Assembly (NCBI GenBank): GCA_963802265.1
Contig: CAWDIC010000007.1
Location: forward strand, 169,608-193,607
Reading direction: 5' to 3'
DNA length: 24,000 nucleotides
Source: an uncultured delta proteobacterium
Lineage (GTDB): Bacteria; Desulfobacterota; Desulfobacteria; Desulfobacterales; CAWDIC01
The notes below the pieces were generated by a model. It was not told the origin of the DNA and ran no database searches. It worked only from the letters and a program-made list of their open reading frames with translations. This document shows positions 2,225 to 23,382 of the stretch, piece by piece. Positions within the stretch are counted from its first letter, which is position 1, and every line of letters starts with the position of its first letter. The position numbers were made by a program, and so were the translations under genes.

Positions 2225-2426
2225 TATCTCACAGAGACAGAGCACAGAGTTTTATTCGAATTTTTCAAAGAAGATTCAGATTTTAGCCCAATCTTCGCTT
2301 ATCCTTGTTTTATTATCAATATAACGTATTTTAATATATACGTTTTCCTGATTTTTCCTCTCAAAAAATCAGGAAAAGAACAATCTTTGTGATCTCTGTG
2401 GGCTCGAGCGAAGCGGGCGAGAGATA
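2225..2426. mobile_element. CTCTGTG-terminal inverted-repeat element, copy E1 (MITE-like)
   Basis: Left end: TA TCTC ACAGAG ACAGAG CACAGAG. Right end: hairpin 2343-2377 (loop CCTCTCA), then CTTTGTG at CTCTGTG GGCTCGAGCGAAGCGGGC GAGAGA TA. Confidence 0.7.
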
Positions 2427-3493: not shown

Positions 3494-3530
3494 ATAAAAT
3501 TATTACACGATTTTATATAGCGCGACGACA
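3494..3530 (-). repeat. DH element, copy 3 (degenerate)
   Basis: ATAAAATtattaca CGATTTTAT atag cGCGAC gac..; the second arm of the GC hairpin is decayed. It starts 3 nt after the transporter stop. Confidence 0.6.
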
Positions 3531-3726: not shown

Positions 3727-3783
3727 GGTTCATTGGGTTCGTTGGGTTTGACGACGGACAACGAGCAACAAGCAACCCACAAC
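3727..3783 (+). repeat. GT-rich then CA-rich short-period array in the epimerase leader
   Basis: GGTTCATTGGGTTCGTTGGGTTTG followed by ACGACGGACAACGAGCAACAAGCAACCCACAAC. The two halves are roughly complementary, and the second contains the ACGGACAAC motif. Confidence 0.7.
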
Positions 3784-3847: not shown

Positions 3848-3881
3848 GGCAAACTGGCGTAACTGGCCAACTGGCTAAACC
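3848..3881 (+). repeat. AACTGGCN octamer array
   Basis: GGCAAACTGGCGTAACTGGCCAACTGGCTAAACC, 17 nt upstream of the epimerase ATG. Confidence 0.75.
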
Positions 3882-3897
3882 AAAAAAGGTGTATACA

Positions 3898-4942
3898 ATG
3901 TCGTTTAAGTTTAAAAATGTATTGGTAACCGGAGCAGCAGGGTTCATTGGTTTTCACCTTTCGCTGCGACTGTTGAAAGAGGGTTACCAGGTAACAGGCC
4001 TGGACAACCTGAATGCCTATTATGACGTCAAGCTAAAGGAATCACGACTTGAACTACTCAAAAAGCACGACAAATTCAAGTTTCAAAAGGTCGACCTGGC
4101 CGACCTAAGCGAACTGGAAGCACTTTTTAAGGAGACAGAACTATGAAGTTGTCGTCAACATGGCGGCTCAGGCAGGCGTTCGCTATTCCCTAACGAACCC
4201 CCACGCCTATGTCGATGCCAATATTGTCGGTTTTGTGAATATTCTTGAATGCTGCCGTCATTCAGCGTCAAGCATCTGGTGTATGCGTCGTCCAGTTCCG
4301 TGTATGGCGCCAACACCAATATGCCGTTTTCGATTCACCACAATGTGGATCATCCGGTTTCCCTTTATGCGGCTTCCAAGAAAGCCAACGAACTCATGGC
4401 GCATACCTACAGCCACCTGTACAAGTTGCCATGTACCGGACTCAGGTTTTTTACGGTATATGGTCCATGGGGGCGTCCGGACATGGCGCTCTTTTTGTTT
4501 ACACGGGCCATTATCGAAGGCAAGCCCATCAAGGTTTTCAACCATGGCAAAATGCTGAGAGATTTTACCTACATCGATGACATCATCGAAGGCGTTTACC
4601 GCGTTATGCATAAACTCCCAGAGCCAAATTTATCGTGGAGCGGGTGATGCACCCGATCCGGGTACATCCTACGCCCCTTTCAAATTGTACAACATCGGGA
4701 ACAACAATCCCGTCGAACTTACTGAATTCATCGCAGCCATCGAGGAAACACTTGGCAAACAAGCCCAGAAAGAATACCTCGACTTGCAGCCAGGCGATGT
4801 GCCTGCCACTTATGCCGATGTCGACGATTTGATCAATGATGTTGGGTTTAAGCCGTCCACGCCGCTAAAAGTCGGGATCGCACGTTTCATCGAGTGGTAT
4901 GAGAATTACTATTCTTATAAAATCGTGAAACGATTTTATTGA
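3898..4942 (+). CDS. NAD-dependent epimerase/dehydratase (UDP-glucuronate 4-epimerase-like); three frameshifts
   Basis: Motifs seen: [14 protein letters not shown] Rossmann motif, [30 protein letters not shown] (YxxxK) and [14 protein letters not shown], spread over track ORFs 3889.., 4160.., 4249.. and 4577..4942. SD AAGGTG lies 7 nt before ATG 3898. Confidence 0.8.
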
Positions 4943-4958
4943 CGCGACGATGGCGCTC
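4917..4958 (-). repeat. DH element, copy 4
   Basis: ATAAAATCG tgaaa CGATTTTAT tgac GCGAC gat GGCGC tc. It encodes the last codons (YKIVKRFY stop) of the epimerase. Confidence 0.85.
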
Positions 4959-5063: not shown

Positions 5064-5103
5064 AGCGACAGTCGCATTAAATAAAATCGCATAGCGATTT
5101 TAT
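5064..5103 (+). repeat. DH element, copy 5
   Basis: A GCGAC a GTCGC attaa ATAAAATCG catag CGATTTTAT. It lies 54 nt upstream of the leader-peptide ATG and is inverted relative to copy 4, about 105 bp away. Confidence 0.85.
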
Positions 5104-5156
5104 ATTAACATGATCAGGGTTTTCATAGAATACCTTGAAATTAAAGGATTAATATT

Positions 5157-5296: not shown

Positions 5297-5349
5297 CGCA
5301 TAGAAAACTGTACAAGCTGATAGGTGAAATGGTTAATTGTAGGTGGAGT

Positions 5350-5591
5350 TATCTCTCGCCCGCTCCGCTCGAGCTCGCAGAGTTCTCAGAGTTTTTCATT
5401 TTGCTGATTTTTTGAGAGGAAAAATCAGTAAAAAATAATTTTAACTATATGTTGCAGTAAAATTAGACTTTTTTGTGGCTTTTCGATACTTTAATTAACC
5501 AGATGATAACATGTGATGATTTATTGAGAATCCTCCTCTCAAGGATTCTCAATTAATATTCTCTGTGGCTCTGTGATCTCTGTGAGAGATA
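5350..5591. mobile_element. CTCTGTG-TIR element, copy E2
   Basis: Left: TA TCTCTC GCCCGCTCCGCTCGAGC t CGCAGAG tt CTCAGAG, then hairpin 5404-5428 (loop TGAGAGG). Right: hairpin 5524-5552 (loop CCTCTCA), then CTCTGTG g CTCTGTG at CTCTGTG AGAGA TA. It ends 31 nt before the aroG ATG. Confidence 0.75.
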
Positions 5592-5622
5592 ATCATAAAA
5601 ACATGGGTGAGGGACAACGACA

Positions 5623-6787: not shown

Positions 6788-6843
6788 TCCTTGAGCATCC
6801 TCTTGCTCAAGGATTCTCTAATAAATACGTCTGTGACTCTGTC
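6788..6843 (+). repeat. Half element E4 (right-end type)
   Basis: Hairpin TCCTTGAGCA tcctct TGCTCAAGGA (6788-6813), then GTCTGTG a CTCTGTC. It lies 19 nt upstream of the CM-aroE ATG. Confidence 0.6.
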
Positions 6844-6861
6844 AACTTTGATAGCTAAAGT

Positions 6862-7993: not shown

Positions 7994-8209
7994 TATCTCT
8001 CGCCCGCTTCGCTCGAGCCCGCAGAGCTCTCAGAGATACATTATAGTTGCCTGATTTTGAGAGGAAAAATCAGGCCAACAAATAAGATCTTAGAACATTG
8101 TATGCTCGATAGGCAAGAAGCGATACCGAAGGTGAGCTATAAAATCAGAATCTTCCCCTCAAAGATTCTGAAAAATAACTCTGTGCCTCTGTGGTCTCTG
8201 TGAGAAATA
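7994..8209. mobile_element. CTCTGTG-TIR element, copy E3
   Basis: Left: TA TCTCTC GCCCGCTTCGCTCGAGC c CGCAGAG ct CTCAGAG, then hairpin 8050-8074 (loop GAGAGGA). Right: hairpin 8145-8171 (loop CCCCTCA), then CTCTGTG c CTCTGTG gt CTCTGTG AGAAA TA. Confidence 0.75.
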
Positions 8210-8221
8210 ATAATTCTACTT

Positions 8222-8262
8222 AAGCGACACGGTCCTCATATAAAATTAGTGGAGCATTTTAT
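8222..8262 (+). repeat. DH element, copy 14 (degenerate), carries the aroA SD and start
   Basis: AA GCGAC acg GTCct cat ATAAAATta GTGGAG cATTTTAT G. Compare copy 10. Confidence 0.6.
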
Positions 8263-9527
8263 GTATCAAGTCAAAACACAGCCAATTAAAAATACGACCA
8301 TAACCGTTCCCGGGTCCAAAAGCTTCACCCATCGTTTCCTGATCTCTGCGGCGCTGGCAGATGGACAAAGCACTCTGAAAAACTGCCTTCACAGTGAAGA
8401 CACCACTTATACGATGTCCGCTTTACAACAAATGGGAGTCGCCCATAAAAAACAGGGCCAATCGGTTGTTGTTGAAGGCACGAGCGGAGATTTAAGTGCA
8501 CCTGCCGAGCCGATATACCTTGGCAACTCCGGTACATCCATGCGGTTGTTGACAGCTTTGGCAGCCATAAGCAATGGGAAACATGTTTTGACGGGCACAG
8601 AGCGTATGTGTCAGCGTCCTATTGGTGATTTGATCGAAGCGCTTACGCAGATAGGCATCGATGCCCACTCGAAAAATGGGGATGGTTGTCCTCCGGTTGA
8701 AATCAAAGGCGGGCAGCTTGCCGGCGGTAAAGTCGATCTGAATTGCAAAACCAGCAGCCAGTTTCTTTCCGCTCTGTTGTTGATTGCGCCTTATACGACC
8801 GAGGGACTCGATATTCACGTGATCGAGGGGCCGGTATCAAAGCCGTATATCGACATGACGATCCAAACCATGGGCAAATTGGGCGTCGATGTTGATAGCG
8901 AAGGATATCAAAAATATTTTGTCCAGGGGGGGCAGAAATATCAGGCCGGTGAATATTTCGTTGAAGCCTGATTGCTCCCAGGCCAGTTACTTCTGGGCGG
9001 CCGCAGCGATTACCGGTGCTTCGATTAAAATTGAAGGCATTCAACAGGATTCTATCCAAGGTGATGTCCGGTTGGTTGAAATTTTTAGGGCAATGGGGTG
9101 TGATGTGTTTCCGGAATCTGATGGTATCAGGGTTACAGGTGAACCTCTTCGAGCTGTCCGGGTCGATATGTCCGACATGCCGGATATGGTGCCGACGCTT
9201 GCGGTAGTCGCAGCCTTCGCCAAAGGGACAACCGTGATCGAAAACGTTGCCCATTTAAAAGCCAAAGAGAGCGATCGTATCGCATCGGTGGCCAACGAGT
9301 TGGAAAAAATGGGCATCCATGTCAAAAGGGCAGGGGATGGTTTGAGCATCAAAGGAGGAAACCCGAAAGGCGCTGAAATAGACACCTACGACGATCACCG
9401 CATCGCCATGAGCTTTGCCGTGGCAGGCCTTAAAACACCTGGTGTCGTTATAAAAAACGAAGATTGCGTTAAAAAGTCCTTCCCTAATTTCTGGCGGGTC
9501 TTTGAGACCCTATATAAAATCGCTTAA
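8261..9527 (+). CDS. aroA: 3-phosphoshikimate 1-carboxyvinyltransferase (EPSP synthase); one +1 frameshift near 8966-8968
   Basis: Motifs: VPGSKSFTHRFLISAALA, LGNSGTSMRLL, then after the shift PDCSQASYFWAAAAITG, KESDRI and DDHRIAMSFAVAG. GGAG lies 6 nt before ATG 8261. Confidence 0.9.
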
Positions 9528-9557
9528 CGATTTTATATTTGGCGCGACTTCGTCGCT
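9514..9557 (-). repeat. DH element, copy 6
   Basis: ATAAAATCG cttaa CGATTTTAT atttggc GCGAC ttc GTCGC t. It encodes the last aroA codons (LYKIA stop). Confidence 0.85.
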
Positions 9558-9603: not shown

Positions 9604-10209
9604 ATGAACATTTATTTGGTCGGATATCGCGGTTCCGGTAAAACGACTTTAGGTAAATCTTTGGCGGCCAGGATCGGTTGGCGTTTCATAGACTCAGACG
9701 ATGAAATTATAAAATCATCAGGAATGACAATTCGCGAAATGGTTGATAGCGAAGGATGGAGCGTATTCCGCGAACGGGAATGCAGAATGATAGAGCTAAT
9801 TGCCGGTATACAAAAATGCGTTGTTGCAACCGGCGGCGGTGCAGTGCTAAATCCCGGAAATATTTCTAAAATAAAAGCCAGCGGTAAAGTAATATGGTTG
9901 AAAACCAATCCGGAAACGATAAAAGCAAGGCTTTTAAAAGATACCAACACGAAAGAGCTTAGACCCTCGCTAACTGAGAAGGATTTTGATACAGAAATTG
10001 TAGAAACCCTGAAAGAACGCGAACCTCTATATAAAAAAGCCATGGATGTTGAAATCGATACGGACAATATAGATATTGATAATCTATGTGATAACTATTT
10101 TAACCACATTAGAAATATCAAAATCATCCTAAGATATTTTAGATTTTCCTTTTTCTTCCCTCTCAAAAGAAAAGGAAAAAAACTCTGTGACGCTGTGAGA
10201 GATGTTTGA
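9604..10209 (+). CDS. aroK: Shikimate kinase; the C-terminal ~25 codons read through a repeat element
   Basis: Reads MNIYLVGYRGSGKTTLGKSLA (P-loop), DSD, ATGGGAV. The tail ...IKIILRYFRFSFFFPLKRKGKKLCDAVRDV is encoded by half-element 10144-10203, so the true stop may lie earlier. Confidence 0.85.
   Translation: MNIYLVGYRGSGKTTLGKSLAARIGWRFIDSDDEIIKSSGMTIREMVDSEGWSVFRERECRMIELIAGIQKCVVATGGGAVLNPGNISKIKASGKVIWLKTNPETIKARLLKDTNTKELRPSLTEKDFDTEIVETLKEREPLYKKAMDVEIDTDNIDIDNLCDNYFNHIRNIKIILRYFRFSFFFPLKRKGKKLCDAVRDV
10144..10203 (+). repeat. Half element E5 (right-end type)
   Basis: Hairpin TTTTCCTTTT(T)CTT ccctctc AAAAGAAAAGGAAAA, then CTCTGTG a CGCTGTG AGAGAT. It lies inside the 3' tail of the aroK ORF. 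Confidence 0.6.
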
Positions 10210-10240
10210 TCATCGACTTCAACCCATCGACTCACTGTCA

Positions 10241-10316
10241 GTAACTGGCCAACTGGTTAACCGGTTAAACTGGCTAACTGATAACAGCAACGGACAACCG
10301 ACGACAAACAACTAAC
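10241..10316 (+). repeat. AACTGGCN octamer array followed by a GGACAAC/CA-rich array (aroC leader)
   Basis: GTAACTGGCC AACTGGTT AACCGGTT AAACTGGCT AACTGATA ACAGCAAC GGACAACC GACGACAA ACAACTAAC. It ends 20 nt before the aroC ATG. Confidence 0.8.
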
Positions 10317-10335
10317 ATTATATGGAGCATTATAC

Positions 10336-11424
10336 ATGTCCAGCACTTTCGGTACATTATTTAGAGTTACAACATTCGGCGAATCACATTCCAAAGGTGT
10401 CGGGCGTTATCCTCGATGGCTGTCCTCCCAAGATGTCGCTAAGCGAAGACGATATTCAACCTCAGCTCGATCGCCGCCGCCCTGGACAGAGCAAATTGAC
10501 GACTGAGACGAAGCGAAGCGGATCGTGTCACCATTTTATCCGGGGTTGAAAACGGTAAAACGTTTGGGACACCCATAGGCATGTTTGTGCCCAACAAGGA
10601 TCATCGACCAGGCGATTACAAGGCCATGCAGGATATACCGCGTCCGTCCCATGCGGATTATACCTATCAGATGAAATACGGAATTCGGCCGTCCAGCGGG
10701 GGAGGGCGGTCGAGCGCCAGAGAGACAATCGGCCGGGTTGCCGCTGGCGCCATTGCTGAGAAGATTCTTTTTGAAAGAGCCGGTGTTGAGATTGTCGCAT
10801 GGGTGAGTTCCATCGGCGATATCGATGCCCACGGAATTGATATCGGAACAAATTACACGCCTGCAAGTCGATGAATCACCGGTTCGTTGTCCTGATCCTG
10901 AGATAACCGAAAAAATGGTGCGGAAGGTAAAGGAGGTAAAAGCAGCCTCCGATTCAGTGGGAGGTATTGTATCGTGTGTTTGTCGATTTGTTCCACCTGG
11001 TTTGGGTGAACCGGTTTTCGATAAAATGGAAGCCAAGCTGGCCCATGCCATGTTGTCGATTCCTGCAACCAAGGGATTTGAAATAGGTTCCGGTTTCGCT
11101 GGATCCAGAATGCACGGATCCGAGCACAATGATCCGTTTATGAAAAAGGGGGGTGGGTTAGGGACCGTGACCAATTTTAGCGGCGGCATACAGGGAGGCA
11201 TTACAAATGGTGAGCCGATCGTATTTCGAGTGGCATTCAAACCCCCGGCAACAATTGGACTTGCCCAGCAGACCGTTGACTTTGAGGGCCAACAAGTAAC
11301 CCTGGAAGCCAAAGGCCGCCACGACCCCTGTGTCGTCCCAAGAGCCGTCCCAATCGTAGAGGCGATGGCAGCTTTAGTCTTATGCGACATGTTTTTAATC
11401 CAAGCCACAAGAAGTCACAAATGA
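10336..11424 (+). CDS. aroC: Chorismate synthase; three +1 frameshifts (10402-10404, 10520-10521, about 10840-10870)
   Basis: ATG 10336 gives [23 protein letters not shown]. It continues as [33 protein letters not shown], then [33 protein letters not shown]...RPSHADYTY..., then VRCPD...[13 protein letters not shown]...[18 protein letters not shown]. Confidence 0.85.
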
Positions 11425-12947: not shown

Positions 12948-13019
12948 TTTATGGCGATTTATTCACCGCCCATTCGCGCCGCTCGTTCAAGATCTACCCT
13001 GTATCTATACCTTTTGGTA

Positions 13020-13062
13020 GAGCGACATCGTCGCGTCACATAAAATCGTCTAACGATTTTAT
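13020..13062 (+). repeat. DH element, copy 7
   Basis: GA GCGAC atc GTCGC GTCAc ATAAAATCG tctaa CGATTTTAT. It shares an extended left flank TTTTGGTAGAGCGACATCGTCGCGTCA with copy 8. Confidence 0.9.
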
Positions 13063-13064
13063 CC

Positions 13065-13098
13065 TTGAAAACCGTTCAGGTATGATATATTGTCATAC
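13065..13098 (+). promoter_or_regulatory. Candidate toxin-antitoxin promoter with operator-like inverted repeat
   Basis: TTGAAA (13065-13070) with TATATT/TATTGT at 15-17 bp. It overlaps the inverted repeat GTATGA-N7-TCATAC (13080-13098) just upstream of the RHH antitoxin gene. Confidence 0.4.
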
Positions 13099-13678: not shown

Positions 13679-13708
13679 TATCGGGCATATAAATCAAGGT
13701 TTTTGGTA

Positions 13709-13751
13709 GAGCGACATCGTCGCGTCATATAAAATTGTTCCACGATTTTAT
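13709..13751 (+). repeat. DH element, copy 8
   Basis: GA GCGAC atc GTCGC GTCAt ATAAAATtG ttcca CGATTTTAT. The T opposite G would be a G-U wobble in a +-strand RNA. Confidence 0.9.
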
Positions 13752-13769
13752 GCCCGAAGGGCTGAGTGT

Positions 13770-13899
13770 TTTATGGATTTTCCCCTCCCTGGCCTGTAGG
13801 TCCGGAAGATCGTACTGGGCTCAGGAAAATCCATAAAGAAATAGTACTCTCTCTGCGTTCTCTGCGTCTCGAGCGAACACAGTGAGCGGGTGTGAGATA
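13770..13899 (+). repeat. Half element E8 (right-end type, expanded loop)
   Basis: A 14-bp perfect stem TTTATGGATTTTCC / GGAAAATCCATAAA encloses a 40-nt loop that starts CCTCCCT and ends CTCA. Then comes CTCTGCG tt CTCTGCG t CTCGAGCGAAcacagtgaGCGGGTGTGAGATA. Confidence 0.6.
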
Positions 13900-13944
13900 A
13901 AAAACCATTATACCAACCGCCCAGATACTGTCGGCGAGCTTTTG

Positions 13945-16113: not shown

Positions 16114-16178
16114 CATAGCATTTCAATAATTCCAATGCAATCATCAAGAAATTCACAGACGTTAAATCGTGTTGCCAA

Positions 16179-16201
16179 ATGAAATCGCTAAACGATTTTA
16201 T
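16179..16201. repeat. Solo AT-rich hairpin related to DH hairpin 2 (copy 9)
   Basis: ATgAAATCG ctaaa CGATTTTAT, with no GCGAC hairpin next to it. Confidence 0.6.
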
Positions 16202-16269
16202 TTGTGATAATAGGACTACCCAGTTAAAAAACGAAGATTATTCTAAAGTTGAATGATCCGCATTAGAAA

Positions 16270-16312
16270 AAGCGACAACGTCGCGTAATATAAAATCGTG
16301 GAGCGATTTTAT
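16270..16312 (+). repeat. DH element, copy 10, carries the SD and start of the LamG-VanZ gene
   Basis: AA GCGAC aac GTCGC GTAAt ATAAAATCG TGGAG CGATTTTAT G. GGAG lies in the loop, and the A and T of the ATG (16311-16313) lie in the stem. Confidence 0.9.
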
Positions 16313-17455
16313 GAGAACAATCAGGCCTTTGTTTTTGCTAATTATTATTGCGGCAGCCTTATTTATAATGATTGCGTATTTTGGGTTGAGACCCAAGGAT
16401 TTTAACTCAGTAAACCAAGTTAGCTGGCTTGAAGATAAAAATGGAATTCGGGTGGGGAAATATAACCTCTGTTACGCCATTGACCCATTAAAACAAACAA
16501 ATGGAATAATGACATACCCACTGCTTTTACAATAGAAATTGCGCTGAGATCCCAAGGCACACACAAGGATGGGTTTCAATTTATCATGGTCTTTCACAAT
16601 GGAAATGATTCCGAACAGTTGTTAGTCGGTCAATGGCGATCCTCTATCGTTGTCATGAATGGCAATGACTATGCCAATAAGCAAAAAACTCCAAAACTGT
16701 ATATAAAGGAGGGCTTACCGTCTCATAAAACACGCTATTTAACGATAACGACAGGATTAGATGGGACGTGTGTTTACCTTGAGGGCCAACTGGTTAGAAA
16801 GAGACGCAATTTGTTGCTTAAGATACCGACTGGTACTGTCGAAACAACACTCGTTCTGGGCAATTCCGTAAACGGCAGACACCCTTGGAAAGGTGAATTT
16901 TATGGCTTTGTACTATTCCCCTTTCAGTTGAATGCCAAGGATATTGTCATCCACCATGACGAATGGATGAAAAGTAACTCATTTTCCTCTTTTAAGAAAT
17001 ATTCTCCAAGTATTATGTATATGTTCGACGAAAATTCCGGTCATAAAGCGTTAGATCATTCAAGTGGTGGGCACCACCTTAACTTACCGGCCCAATTTCG
17101 CATTTTGCAAAAAGAAATCCTTGGCATCCCTCAACGAACCGACCTAACTACCAAATCATCAATTCAAGATATATTGCTTAACTTATTAGGATTTATTCCC
17201 TTTGCCATCGCTCTAAACGCGGTTTTTTTGCATGCCAACCGATGGACGGCCAAGCATGGCGCCTTATTGACTTTGTTGTTGTGCTTTACCATTAGCCTAT
17301 CCATTGAGCTTATACAGGCTGAAATGCCATCGCGTAGTTCACAACTAATTGATTTAATTTTAAATACATTAGGATCCGGCCTCGGCCTGGTGGTTTTTGG
17401 GCACTGGTATTCAAAGATCACGACGAATAATGAGCGACGCCGTCGCGACATATAA
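16311..17455 (+). CDS. Membrane-anchored LamG/concanavalin-like domain protein with a C-terminal VanZ-like membrane domain; one -1 frameshift about 16510-16585
   Basis: N-terminal TM segment RPLFLLIIIAAALFIMIAYF. LamG-like segment FTIEIALRS...WRSSIVVMNG...LYIKEG...LVLGNSVNGRHPWKGEFYGFVLF. C-terminal hydrophobic VanZ-like segment ...SRSSQLIDLILNTLGSGLGLVVF. Confidence 0.6.
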
Positions 17456-17474
17456 AATCGTTGCACGATTTTAT
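17432..17474 (+). repeat. DH element, copy 11
   Basis: GA GCGAC gcc GTCGC GACAt ATAAAATCG ttgca CGATTTTAT. It encodes the VanZ gene tail (RRRRDI stop) and lies 40 nt upstream of the small ORF. Confidence 0.9.
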
Positions 17475-17514
17475 TGTTTGACAAGATTTTACATATTCCA
17501 TTAGAGTGATAATT

Positions 17515-17712
17515 ATGAAATCAAATACAGAATCCCCACCAAAAAGCTCGAAGAAAGCATCTGGTTGCTCCAAGCGTCGGTCAGGGGCTGACCGACGTCA
17601 GGAATTCATCACGCCCTACATGAATTTTGTTTACAATGGCGATGAAAAACGATCGGATGAAGAGCGCCGCAAAGCTGAGGAACGACGCAAAGAATCGCGA
17701 AAAAAAGAATAA
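17515..17712 (+). CDS. Small (65 aa) highly basic Arg/Lys/Glu-rich protein of unknown function
   Basis: MKSNTESPPKSSKKASGCSKRRSGADRRQEFITPYMNFVYNGDEKRSDEERRKAEERRKESRKKE. It is bracketed by inverted copies of the double-hairpin element. The SD is weak, so coding status is uncertain. Confidence 0.45.
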   Translation: MKSNTESPPKSSKKASGCSKRRSGADRRQEFITPYMNFVYNGDEKRSDEERRKAEERRKESRKKE

Positions 17713-17716
17713 AATC

Positions 17717-17759
17717 ATAAAATCGCACAGCGATTTTATATGTCGCGACGATGCCGCTC
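17717..17759 (-). repeat. DH element, copy 12
   Basis: ATAAAATCG cacag CGATTTTAT atgtc GCGAC gat GCCGC tc. It starts 5 nt after the small-ORF stop and is inverted relative to copy 11. Confidence 0.85.
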
Positions 17760-18220: not shown

Positions 18221-18401
18221 CGGAGCGTACAGGTGGTACGTGAGTATTGAAAAACTTGGGATAACGCCGTAGTTGAGCATGAGATGAATTTATAAATGGC
18301 ATTTTAGAAGCGGAGCGTGCAAAGTAATACGTGAGTATTGAAAAACACAGAATAACGCCGTGATTGGGTGCGAGGTGGCTTTATAATTGGCTTTTTAGAA
18401 G
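18221..18401. repeat. Two tandem ~90-bp direct repeats
   Basis: Units 18221-18310 and 18311-18401 share CGGAGCGT, ACGTGAGTATTGAAAAAC, ATAACGCCGT and TTTTAGAAG (roughly 70 percent by eye). The second unit overlaps the stop and last codons of the beta-barrel gene. Confidence 0.7.
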
Positions 18402-19775
18402 CGATATTCGTAGGCAGCGGTAATCGAGTTTCGATTGATCAGATTCCCCTCAACACAAATCACCGAATGCCCAGTAAGGTGATATTCAACTCCCCCAAAG
18501 AACCCCCAGTGCTTCTTTTCTTCCAACTCATCTTCATAGCGATATGTTGTAAACGGGGCAGGTAGGTTCTCGAGCTGTCTTCGGGTGGTGGTTTCACGGT
18601 AGTCTAACCAATTGCCCCCCCCAAATACGATCAAACGGGAATATACAATACCGCCTTCCAGTTTGAGCATTATTTCTCGCCAATCAGATGACTTGTGCCA
18701 TTTGTCGCCGGCTTTTGATTTATAATCCTCCTCGAACTGCCCCTTGTGGAAATCGGCCAGAAAAGCAAAGTAAAGCTTAGATGAGGTATAAAAGTCAGTT
18801 TCATACAGGTTTTGGCGCAATCCAAGTCCGTATACATACCTGGGCTCGGAAGATTCGAAGTCATAATTCGCGCCAAAGTCAGCATAAAGCTCCACGAAGT
18901 CGGTTAAACCAAAACGGGCATTGATCGTGGTCATGTGGAAAGAGGCCGGGAAGTCGTTTCTGAAGTCCGTGGTGACAGGAACAGTTGTTCTTCCAGTGTC
19001 CGTTACGCGGATTCGCTTATCAACTTCCGTATCCATTTCAATATAGGAGTGTTTTAGGCTCAAAGCGAATGAACTCTCACGCAGGTTGCGCCCCAGCCCC
19101 CTGTTTAGTTCCTTTATTTTTACAGCTCTTTGTGTTGGCTCGGGCATTTTTGCATCAACGTCGTCCTGGTGTTTGTCTTCGGTGATTTCAGCCGTTGCAG
19201 CCGCCGCCATGGTGGCATTCTGGGGAGAGGATGATGCCATCTCTGAACCGGCGGTTGTCTCTTCCATTGAAGGGGCTTCTGTGTCCACCATTGATGAAGC
19301 GCTGACAGGCGCAATTTTTTCTTTTAAAGGAATCACGGTTCCCTGTTCAGCAACTTCAGGTTTGGGTTTTTCCTGGAACTTATCGAAAAGCAAAGAAGGC
19401 TTGCTAATGATTAGCGCCTGACCCGTAAAAAGCCCCTTTTTCCTTAAATCCAGGGCCGCCGCGTCCGCTTCAGGTCTAGACTTCATAAGGCCCAATGAAA
19501 ACCCTGTTCCAGAATTCGGATTCCGTGACTTCGGTATATCTGATCACGGTTTCATAATTTAAATTTTTCAACTCGTTGGAAAATTTTACGGCCCTGTCTT
19601 CTGTTTTAAACGATCCCACCTGGATGTAGAAAAAATCTCCTTCCGCACAAAAAACTAAAGTCGGGAAAATGCAAAAAAGTGCAAAAAATAAGGATACAAG
19701 TACGGCAACCCAATGCTTTCGCCGAGCACACCTTGATTCGGCCTTTCCGTAAATTAGCCTTTTGATTTTATTCAT
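18395..19775 (-). CDS. Exported SPOR-domain protein fused to a C-terminal outer-membrane beta-barrel; one frameshift about 19476-19495
   Basis: Signal/anchor HWVAVLVSLFFALFCIFPTLVFCAEG. SPOR-like FYIQVGSFKTEDRAVKFSNELKNLNYETVIRY...WNRVFIGPY joins RPEADAAALDLRKKGLFTGQALII. An Ala/Thr/Glu/Ser linker follows, then alternating-pattern strands ending YEYRF. Confidence 0.65.
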
Positions 19776-19837: not shown

Positions 19838-19864
19838 ATTATATGTAAATATCAAAAATGTCAA
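19838..19864 (-). promoter_or_regulatory. Candidate sigma-70 promoter for the SPOR/beta-barrel gene
   Basis: The minus strand reads TTGACA (19864-19859), a 15-nt spacer, then TATAAT (19843-19838). The spacer is short, but homopolymer lengths are unreliable here. AGGTGA SD lies 5 nt before ATG 19775. Confidence 0.45.
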
Positions 19865-19867
19865 CAA

Positions 19868-19920
19868 ATAAAATCGCTTTACCATTTTATGCTTCATTGA
19901 AATCGCCCTGGCGATTTCAA
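19868..19920. repeat. Two adjacent hairpins related to DH hairpin 2 (copy 13 plus a variant)
   Basis: ATAAAATCG cttta CcATTTTAT (19868-19890), then TTGAAATCGC cctg GCGATTTCAA (19897-19920, a perfect 10-bp stem). Confidence 0.65.
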
Positions 19921-20920: not shown

Positions 20921-20946
20921 ATCCAAAATAAAATTAATTACAAAAA

Positions 20947-20989
20947 GAAACAGCCCGTTCCAATTTGAAACGGGCTGTTTCTCTTTTGT
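20947..20989 (+). terminator. Intrinsic terminator after the PEP-CTERM gene
   Basis: GAAACAGCCCGTT (20947-20959) pairs perfectly with AACGGGCTGTTTC (20969-20981), followed by TCTTTTGT. Confidence 0.8.
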
Positions 20990-21000
20990 ATATCTTGCGC

Positions 21001-21073
21001 CTTTTTGTGGCTAAGATTATTAAAAATATTTTATTCGGCCATGTCGGCCGAATAATGTCTGCGTGGGTCTGCG
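21001..21073 (+). repeat. Half element E6 (variant)
   Basis: TTTTTGTGGCT is shared with the E2 centre at 5470-5480. Then comes the hairpin TTATTCGGCC atgtc GGCCGAATAA (21031-21055), then GTCTGCG tgg GTCTGCG. Confidence 0.45.
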
Positions 21074-23088: not shown

Positions 23089-23115
23089 AGTGACTAAAAT
23101 CAATAAAAAAAATAA

Positions 23116-23325
23116 CCACAGAGACACGAAGGACACAGAGCTAACTATCTATTATGTTTGTCGGGAGACGACGACAAACATAAAAACATCTTTAGTTCAT
23201 AAAGATTATAACTTTATATTTTCAATTGCTTAAATTTAAATTATTGGTATCAAAAGTTTTATCCAATCGTCGTCTCCCGATTGGATAAAAAATGTATAAT
23301 CTCTGTGACCTCTGTGCCTCTGTGG
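23116..23325. mobile_element. CTCTGTG-TIR element, copy E7 (variant loops)
   Basis: Left TIR CCACAGAGACACGAAGGACACAGAG versus right CTCTGTGACCTCTGTGCCTCTGTGG (21/25 as reverse complement). Hairpins 23152-23183 (loop GGAGACGA) and 23257-23290 (loop TCGTCTCC) have different stems. It lies between the sigma-54 promoter and the activator ATG. Confidence 0.75.
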
Positions 23326-23382
23326 TGGAATTAAATAAAAACCTGTTCAATCTGTGTGAATCAGTGTCCTTTAAATTGACAA

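Follow-up and report, generated by a model that had tools for sequence, protein, structure and literature searches.

Conserved-loop hairpins between the aro genes of a delta proteobacterium and their probable origin from elements carrying a GxxExxY nuclease gene

The aro operon of an uncultured delta proteobacterium of the Desulfobacterales (GenBank assembly GCA_963802265.1) contains intergenic hairpins with similar loops on different stems, which raises the question of what such hairpins are for. They lie in a stretch of 24,000 nucleotides (nt; contig CAWDIC010000007.1, positions 169,608 to 193,607), called here the window, to which all coordinates refer. A preliminary description of positions 5350-5591 had proposed that the two loops of one element, one resembling a Shine-Dalgarno (SD) sequence and the other the anti-SD end of 16S rRNA, contact each other and influence expression of aroG and aroA. 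The hairpins do not appear to be SD switches for the aro genes. We consider it rather probable that they are sub-terminal stem-loops of gene-less palindromic elements, derived by internal deletion from a parent that carries a GxxExxY nuclease gene between the same tandem-unit arrays.

Loops and stems of the hairpins

The hairpins belong to elements present in the window as four complete copies of 202-242 base pairs (bp; A, B, C and D) and three partial ones (E, F and G; Table 1). Read from the inside outwards, an end module consists of a hairpin with a CT-rich loop (CCYCTCA), an A-rich spacer of 3-20 nt, two or three tandem units of 8-9 nt (CTCTGTGN) and a short terminus. Copies A, B and C are asymmetric: one end comprises TATCTCTC, a segment GCCCGCTNCGCTCGAG termed 'mod' and two degenerate units (CGCAGAG and CTCAGAG), and the other has three units CTCTGTGN followed by AGAGATA. 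B, E, C and F fill four successive spacers of the aro operon. The 7-mer CTCTGTG occurs 17 times in the window (1.09 expected), and folding of positions 5340-5600 compared with shuffled sequences gives a z-score of about -5.4, both as RNA and as DNA. Rfam covariance models returned nothing over the elements (window at E up to 1, 16 related loci at the gathering score), and promoter-like sites in copy B number two, against 2.0 expected.

Table 1. Elements, their hairpins and a second repeat family in the window
Feature	Coordinates	Strand	Description
Copy B	5350..5591	-	complete non-autonomous element; ancestral gene direction probably minus; plus strand, left half: TATCTCTC, 'mod' GCCCGCTCCGCTCGAG, CGCAGAG TT CTCAGAG, hairpin; then ~95 nt; right half: hairpin, CTCTGTG x3 (5561-5584), AGAGATA
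Copy B left hairpin	5404-5428	-	CTGATTTTT 5404-5412, loop TGAGAGG 5413-5419 (minus strand CCTCTCA), AAAAATCAG 5420-5428
Copy B right hairpin	5523-5553	-	ATTGAGAATCCT 5523-5534, loop CCTCTCA 5535-5541 (minus strand TGAGAGG), AGGATTCTCAAT 5542-5553; core (ATT)GAGAATCCT 5523/5526-5534, 3' arm AGGATTCTC 5542-5550
Copy B end array	5561..5591	+	CTCTGTG G CTCTGTG AT CTCTGTG, terminus AGAGATA
Copy A	2225..2426	+	complete, inverted relative to B; repeat match 104 nt, 80%; three-unit end 2225-2249; hairpin TTTTCCTGATTTTT/CCTCTCA 2343-2377; CTTTGTG AT CTCTGTG, 'mod' and GAGAGATA 2386-2426
Copy C	7994..8209	-	complete; spacer from chorismate mutase/shikimate dehydrogenase fusion gene to aroA; repeat match 93%; 'mod' end 7994-8035; hairpin 8050-8074, loop GAGAGG; hairpin 8145-8170 (CAGAATCTT/CCCCTCA); CTCTGTG x3 8179-8202; AGAAATA
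Copy D	23113..23328	.	complete, second subfamily, stem class common to L068; TAACCACAGAG..CACAGAG; hairpin 23155-23180, loop GGAGACGA 23164-23171; hairpin 23257-23289 (TTTTATCCAATCG/TCGTCTCC, loop 23270-23277); CTCTGTG x3; GTGGA
Module E	6788..6850	+	decayed solo end; hairpin TCCTTGAGCA/TCCTCT/TGCTCAAGGA; degenerate units GTCTGTG ACTCTGTC; repeat match 76%
Module F	10144..10204	+	solo end; hairpin TTTTCCTTTTTCTT/CCCTCTC; CTCTGTG ACGCTGTG; AGAGATG
Module G	13770..13906	-	solo 'mod'-type end, inverted; hairpin TTTATGGATTTTCC..GGAAAATCCATAAA with 40-nt insert in loop; CTCTGCG TT CTCTGCG; long 'mod' form (CTCGAGCGAACACAGTGAGCGGGTGTGAGATA), also in L264, L267 and L182
Double-hairpin family copies	2163-2209, 2529-2580, 3494-3528, 4917-4948, 5068-5110, 9501-9545, 13012-13069, 13701-13758, 16166-16210, 16262-16319, 17424-17481, 17712-17759, 19855-19899		second, unrelated repeat family

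In order to compare loop conservation with stem change, we surveyed 1.49 Mb of sequence, made up of the window and 242 related loci (denoted by L numbers). Among perfect hairpins with an octamer array at most 50 nt downstream, 18 of 38 had a CT-rich loop containing CTC, against 40 of 864 other hairpins; by our own count, such a loop, mostly CCYCTCA, is carried by 24 of the 26 strong hairpins (stem of at least 9 bp) that lie just inside an array. CCYCTCA is the commonest loop and sits on different stems on unrelated contigs (L193, L196, L242 twice, L180, L195, L207, L237 and L254). In copy D and L068 the stem TTTT(A/C)TCCAATCG carries loops of a second class, (T)CGTCTCC / CCGCCTCC. When 13 hairpins with 7-nt loops were aligned, all 12 stem pairs varied on both sides and the CTC of the loop was invariant; these hairpins had been preselected for perfect stems, so that the percentage of paired positions is uninformative. 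Between copies B and C there are two stem changes, both compensated, and the gene-less copies hold perfect stems of 9-14 bp. This supports the view that the hairpins, with their probably recognised loop, are conserved under structural constraint and are not an inverted repeat in random decay. We also considered, as a general guide-target rule, pairing of the loop CCTCTCA with a terminus TGAGAGA, and rejected it, as the CT-rich loops persist in elements whose terminus is GTGAA and does not match them (L242 and copy D).

Much of the preliminary description is borne out by this larger sample. Its hairpins are present, those at 2343, 8050, 8145/8146, 10144, 6788 and 13770 within 1-2 nt of the positions it gave, and conservation of the loop with covariation of the stem holds. 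Two of these hairpins need qualification: at 13770 the 'loop' is 40 nt long, and the hairpin at 6788 is register-shifted, its 3' arm consisting of the loop and stem of copy B. The latter (6788-6818, module E) has been re-centred. It shares with copy B the sequence CTCAAGGATTCTC, which in B is the loop end plus the 3' arm and which in module E pairs with a new 5' arm, TCCTTGAG, around a new CT-rich loop, TCCTCT. The statement that the stems 'differ completely' does not hold, since they can be grouped into a small number of homologous classes (of TGATT, CAGAAT, TTCCTTTTCTTT and CCAATCG type).

The complementarity of the two loops within an element is real in copy B; in copy C the left and right loops show one A-C mismatch. 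Across lineages the left and right loops vary, and within an element they match (TGAGAGG/CCTCTCA, GGAGACGA/TCGTCTCC, GAGACTGAT/ATCTGTCTC). The two ends of an element are inverted copies of one module, and it is for this reason that their loops are complementary on one strand; this is geometry and no evidence for pairing. The two mismatches seen within elements are A-C and U-U and not G-U wobbles, and thus lend no RNA-specific support to a loop-loop contact, which may nevertheless take place in the mRNA of the parent element or in single-stranded DNA. The preliminary description had set its reading against the possibility that left and right hairpins are simple reverse complements of one another, and this is half true: the loops are, the ends being inverted, and the stems are not.

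We give hardly any credence to the proposal that SD-like and anti-SD-like loops kiss and control translation of the downstream aro genes. The purine-rich loops do hold the 4-mers GAGG or GGAG, and transcription of the aro operon must include B, C, E and F, which lie in its spacers. However, the loops are 80-210 nt from start codons (the purine-rich ones about 190-210 nt from those of the host genes), as opposed to the 5-13 nt expected for an SD sequence, and the conserved core is CTCA or CTC rather than CCUCC, with CCTCC in one of about 24 loops. The orientation relative to host genes is not fixed either, being two against two in the window, with all copies in L226 opposite to the window's plus-strand copies. 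An orthologous aroG (L121) lacks the element, and the hairpins were in all likelihood inherited from a parent in which they flank the nuclease gene on the strand opposite to aroG. What remains of the preliminary description is therefore a recognised, conserved hairpin; its SD/anti-SD reading for aroG and aroA does not stand.

Gene-bearing elements and the gene-less copies

A scan of genomes (one per species) for three CTCTGTG units yielded at least 120 loci; the loci listed come from Planctomycetota, Acidobacteriota, Chloroflexota, Cyanobacteria, Myxococcota, Bacteroidota, Proteobacteria and Firmicutes, and from one archaeon of the Methanotrichaceae. A metagenome scan for the subfamily ending in CTCTGTGAGA also gave at least 120 loci, and the G+C content of the loci is 36-74% in genomes and 33-74% when metagenome loci are included. 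The usual form is TCAC-CACAGAG-N-CACAGAG-NN-CACAGAG ... CTCTGTG-NN-CTCTGTG-N-CTCTGTG-GTGA, an inverted pair with 20-300 nt between the arrays. Unit variants include CACGGAG, CGCAGAG, CACAAAG and CACGAAG, as well as CTCCGTG in L094 and L006.

Other arrangements of the arrays were also seen. In Pyrinomonadaceae and some Planctomycetota (L005, L010, L017, L102, L032 and L036) the arrays are reversed, CTCTGTG x3-GTGA ... TCAC-CACAGAG x3, and 10-40 nt apart, and in L102 two such junctions surround 3.8 kb of ordinary genes; such a reversed pair may represent either two elements that abut or another kind of organisational unit. L158 (370-2290) holds a tandem array of six head-to-tail units of 132 nt, each a complete small element plus a 30-nt spacer. 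Downstream of aroG in L121 (2355-2435) there is a small element of like architecture built from a different unit, CTTGCGT CTTAGCGT CTTTGCGT ... ACGCCAAG ACGCCAAG ACGCAAAG, and this CTTGCGT-type unit also flanks a fragment of a GxxExxY gene in L150.

The gene associated with the arrays was recognised in L203, where a distant array pair brackets an open reading frame (ORF) of 130 amino acids (aa) that matches Pfam PF13366 (PDDEXK_3) at 2e-39. Its homologues are TIGR04256 'GxxExxY proteins' of about 130 aa, members of the PD-(D/E)XK nuclease family. Such a gene lies between or beside the arrays in 10 of the loci selected by their arrays. To remove the bias of that selection, we sampled homologues by protein similarity alone, and all seven (P0168, P0180, P0171, P0157, P0152, P0240 and P0205) had arrays on both sides, of CACAGAG type upstream and of CTCTGTG type downstream. 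Among more distant genes on annotated plasmids or chromids of Bacteroidota, Gemmatimonadota, Alphaproteobacteria and Spirochaetota, six of eight were flanked by inverted arrays (Bernardetia, Bacteroides finegoldii, Gemmatirosa, Sphingomonas with unit CGCGAAG and Prevotella with unit ACAAATC) or, in Treponema, by a single inverted repeat. The unit thus differs among gene-bearing loci (CACAGAG, CGCAGAG, CGCGAAG, CACGAAG, GTCTGCG and ACAAATC). No transposase was found between distant inverted arrays, and those in L045, L057, L065, L102, L137 and L233 carry ordinary genes. Clustering of ORFs near the arrays of the first 120 genome loci detected no recurrent family and missed GxxExxY, which was present in only one of them.

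The catalytic D...E-x-K residues are invariant in an alignment of the GxxExxY family, which comprises 30,871 clusters at 50% identity (E up to 1e-3). The AlphaFold model (predicted local distance difference test score, pLDDT, of 90) has a generic PD-(D/E)XK fold, with lambda exonuclease, Cas4 and tRNA-splicing endonuclease as the nearest folds. A search of the PDB by sequence found no relative of the nuclease; PADLOC gave only weak Cas4-like matches and PHROGs none. In a 2012 survey of the PD-(D/E)XK superfamily the function of GxxExxY / PDDEXK_3 is given as 'Unknown', and multiple bacterial-archaeal transfers are noted (PMC3424549). Open-access papers and bioRxiv, the literature searched, contained neither a function for GxxExxY/PF13366 nor a connection of GxxExxY genes with these repeats, and searches there by sequence strings and by tandem octamer or MITE (miniature inverted-repeat transposable element) wording gave nothing relevant. 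The genes are often located in polysaccharide-synthesis loci (Polysacc_synt_2, Wzz, Wzi, epimerases, nucleotidyl-sugar enzymes) or beside HepT/nucleotidyltransferase toxin-antitoxin genes (L243-L254, L264-L270 and L255). Some members (P0241, P0243-P0246 and others) have about 275 aa with two tandem GxxExxY domains, a hint that the nuclease may work as a dimer or a larger assembly.

In the Desulfobacterota lineage we found gene-bearing elements in L182, L243, L254, L264-L270 and L170. In these, a three-unit array is followed by a leader hairpin, whose stem reads ..CAGAAT.. or TTTCCTTTTCTTT and whose loop is purine-rich on the sense strand; after the leader and the gene come a 3' hairpin and then two units plus 'mod'. 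The 3' hairpin has the stop codon TGA inside its 5' arm (TTATCTGATTT, TTGCCATGATT, TCATCAGAATGA, TTGGCTTGATTG) and a CT-rich loop (CCTCTCA). In L269 (Desulfobacteraceae SEEP-SAG9) it reads TTATCTGATTT / ATCCTCTCA / AAAAATCAGATAA, which is the 'left' hairpin of the window. The left hairpin, array and 'mod' of the window align with the 3' ends of L269 and L170 with 24 invariant columns, the stop TGA of L269 falling within the stem CTGATTT. Judging from alignments that include L269, L170 and L254, the left hairpin of copy B corresponds by homology to the 3' hairpin found in gene-bearing elements, the one with the stop codon in its 5' arm. Since the alignment continues through the array and 'mod', the 'mod' end in the window corresponds to the 3' end of the lost gene, and that gene would have pointed away from aroG and aroA in copies B and C, respectively.

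The right hairpins of the window (GAGAATCCT, CAGAATCTT) we judge to be the leader hairpin by their position and ..AGAAT.. stems rather than by alignment; that of copy B would correspond, by shared motif and position, to the 5' leader hairpin of L243, L264 and L267. By eye, and likewise unaligned, the stem of module F resembles the L254 leader hairpin (TTTCCTTTTCTTT). This arrangement explains part of the stem turnover: within an element, one hairpin comes from the leader of the parent and the other from its stop-codon region, and the stem classes predate the gene-less copies. A deletion intermediate is also present in L254, where directly after the gene-bearing copy there is a second one that has lost all but about 20 C-terminal codons of the gene and retains the leader, both hairpins and both ends. 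These comparisons show that the ends and hairpins of the window derive from the ends of nuclease-gene elements, as far as alignment and shared order can tell. At the junctions in L243, L264 and L267 (e.g. L264, about 470-510), head-to-tail elements are joined by a conserved spacer of 14-20 nt, GGGCGTGAG(A/G)AAAA(G)CCTTAAATGCCTTG-TCTCTCGCAGAG, and homology between the contexts of one gene stops just inside the array of the next element.

The position of both hairpins within the transcribed flanks of the parent gene, with the stop codon in the 3' stem, suggests another explanation, namely that the hairpins act in the parent's nuclease mRNA: the purine-rich loop of the 5' leader hairpin would contact the CT-rich loop of the stop-codon-masking 3' hairpin and so set translation or stability, and the window copies would be recent, functionless relics. 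It is consistent with this that left and right loops differ across lineages and still match within an element, and that several parent genes have no clear SD sequence ahead of their ATG (..AAATAAATAGAAAATG). Yet loop matching is equally expected if one protein recognises both ends, the mismatches between loops are of the A-C and U-U kind instead of G-U, and the perfect 9-14-bp stems together with the compensated changes between B and C suggest that copies without any gene to regulate are under selection in cis. We regard action in the mRNA as unlikely.

Mobility and comparison with known systems

Comparison of related genomes is in keeping with mobility of the elements. The spacer upstream of the orthologous aroG in L121 (AroG 89% identical) is without the element, and a closer relative (AroG 93%) carries the element's right end upstream of aroG. 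In Sphingomonas parapaucimobilis a gene-bearing element lies between fabD and fabG; in S. paeninsulae a single contiguous alignment runs from fabD across the junction to the start of fabG, with only about 32 nt between. These alignments show insertion polymorphism between related genomes, at aroG and, for a gene-bearing element, between fabD and fabG. Identical GxxExxY proteins occur in different neighborhoods, and a single spacer may hold a head-to-tail cluster of two or three small elements. Some copies in the window are flanked by TA; metagenomic copies are not.

We infer that the nuclease may be the mobilising enzyme, reading the arrays and, in this lineage, the folded hairpins. Supplied in trans, as no copy is encoded in the window (a hidden Markov model (HMM) of GxxExxY over the 24 kb found nothing), the nuclease would recognise the arrays at both ends and cut there; in the Desulfobacterota lineage it may also recognise the folded hairpin loops. 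Gene-less copies would keep only the parts required in cis, and such a requirement would explain why the stems stay paired despite drift and why the loop is fixed. The perfect stems of gene-less copies, the compensated changes between B and C and the occurrence of the same loop at both ends favour such a role in cis for the hairpins in movement.

Several observations weigh against the derivation from a nuclease-gene parent or against the part given to the nuclease. The window copies contain no nuclease-gene remnant, the HMM search being negative and translated alignments no better than shuffles. Many lineages have arrays without hairpins (e.g. L258 and L255), so that hairpins are no general requirement of the family. 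Of the 10 loci selected by their arrays, two (L140 and L145) have complete small elements with the gene immediately outside them, and in two of the eight distant loci (L260 and L261) the flanking repeats are direct rather than inverted. No consistent direct repeat that could be a target-site duplication was found at 83 paired-end elements, nor did their comparison yield an exact end. The nuclease could also be a mere passenger.

If so, another enzyme acting in trans, either a REP-type (repetitive extragenic palindromic) HUH tyrosine transposase or another transposase, would mobilise arrays and hairpins, with GxxExxY as a frequent passenger or preferred insertion neighbor. HUH origins, for example in CRESS-DNA viruses and rolling-circle plasmids, combine a few short direct repeats with an adjacent hairpin that varies in its stem and is conserved in its loop. 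The elements described here resemble these origins in having a conserved-loop hairpin next to three direct repeats; their clustering and insertion beside one another, and the genes found outside elements in L140 and L145, would also fit. However, GxxExxY is the sole recurrent gene beside the arrays, no transposase is found between them, unit sequence changes with different GxxExxY genes among loci, and a deletion derivative adjoins its parent. Neither is there an associated HUH gene, and most lineages of the family lack the hairpins. In IS200/IS605 elements, which share the conserved-loop, variable-stem hairpin beside short direct repeats, the hairpins are on the same strand and terminal inverted repeats are missing, whereas here the hairpins of the two ends are on opposite strands, mutually inverted together with their arrays. 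Mobilisation by another enzyme therefore seems to us quite improbable.

Sites of the same architecture have been published. Aklujkar et al. (2009; PMC2700814) reported 'class 2' sites in Geobacter metallireducens, each with three tandem TCTCCGTS(Y) units, in intergenic pairs on opposite strands at variable distance, and suggested binding of integration host factor (IHF) or HU. The unit described here, (T)CTCTGTG(N), differs at one position, and the published sites are given as motifs only, with no nuclease gene, mobility or sub-terminal hairpins (PMC2700814). The arrays might accordingly bind a nucleoid or global regulator of the host such as IHF/HU, the hairpins being incidental, as this suggestion for paired three-repeat sites and the frequent position of the ends 10-45 nt upstream of start codons would allow. 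Against this, the proposal in PMC2700814 is speculative, the sites are present or absent between close relatives, cluster by two or three in a spacer and bracket a nuclease gene, and the same 7-mer in phyla of 33-74% G+C fits mobile DNA better than a regulon. Binding of a host regulator is in our estimation very improbable.

The favoured derivation from a nuclease-gene parent finds its nearest relatives in REP doublets forming hairpins with their REP-associated tyrosine transposases (REPIN-RAYT) by logic, and in MITEs with their parent by form; the enzyme class sets the elements apart from both. As in REP/REPIN-RAYT systems, short palindromic, non-coding, intergenic multi-copy repeats are tied to a small gene flanked by inverted repeats, the repeat sequence changes from lineage to lineage, and repeats are targeted by other insertion sequences; ISGme8/9, for instance, adjoin class 1 sites in Geobacter (PMC2700814). 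Unlike in those systems, the flanked gene is a PF13366 / TIGR04256 PD-(D/E)XK nuclease and not an HUH Y1 transposase, it occurs in several copies and contexts and not as one domesticated copy, and the 7-mer is common to many phyla. The ends consist of three 7-mers at a spacing of 8-9 nt, in contrast to the 20-40-nt imperfect palindrome with a GT(A/G)G head of RAYT repeats, and a single array is not palindromic. Like MITEs, the elements are small (60-300 bp), non-coding and multi-copy, have terminal inverted repeats, are present or absent between relatives, and stand in a deletion relation to a gene-bearing parent with the same ends. They differ from MITEs in that no DDE, serine, tyrosine or HUH transposase is encoded by the parent, no consistent target-site duplication was found, and the terminal repeats are built of tandem short units.

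Other repeats of the window and the meaning of the elements

Unrelated to these elements is another repeat family of the window, present in at least 10 copies (Table 1). It is a REP-like double hairpin, GAGCGAC-N2-4-GTCGC(G) followed by ATAAAATCG-N5-CGATTTTAT, situated mostly just after genes. In L122 a copy of this family is inserted in the right end of the element upstream of aroG, with CTCTGTGAGA(T/A)ATAA on both sides. Further arrays of tandem units, AACTGGCN arrays among them, are found at 3727-3781, 10290-10317, 3849-3878 and 10238-10277. The sequence CGGACAAC GAGCAAC AAGCAAC CCACAAC is the reverse complement of GTTGCTYN-type units, the 'class 1' octanucleotide of G. metallireducens, a unit present in the window at 3750-3781. 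These additional arrays indicate that the genome holds sibling array families.

The aroA gene (8249-9527) is split into overlapping frames, 8249-8971 and 8889-9527. For aroC (about 10322-11424), the C-terminal part (10825-11424, the sole part scanned) matches the chorismate synthase profile and the N-terminal part is apparently in another frame. These splits are either frameshifts or indel errors of long-read assembly. A direct repeat of 76 nt with 80% identity (18237-18312 and 18328-18403) is located upstream of a minus-strand gene (18395-19495), and a palindromic stretch at 20928-21017 has a weak Thr_leader match below threshold (33 bits against 55).

For annotation, the consequence is that these repeats, which fill operon spacers (four of them in the aro operon here), are not to be taken for riboswitches, terminators or regulator sites. 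Conservation and complementarity of the loops are explained without ribosome-binding mimicry. The observations also link a large orphan family, GxxExxY / PDDEXK_3, with the intergenic inverted repeats of tandem units noticed in Geobacter in 2009, where they were put down as 'putative regulator sites'. If the nuclease moves the elements, they would constitute a minimal transposon of a new kind with an unusual end architecture. We propose tentatively, and lean slightly the other way ourselves, that inverted 7-mer arrays with a GxxExxY gene form a previously unrecognised class of prokaryotic mobile elements, with the nuclease as sole protein, representatives in most bacterial phyla and in archaea, and very many gene-less copies. 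Should this be true, an orphan family of about 30,000 clusters at 50% identity would gain a function, the 'global regulator sites' of Geobacter would be explained, and the DDE, HUH, serine and tyrosine classes of transposase would be joined by a further type; the enzyme of the Desulfobacterota lineage would then recognise, among other things, folded hairpins with a fixed loop.

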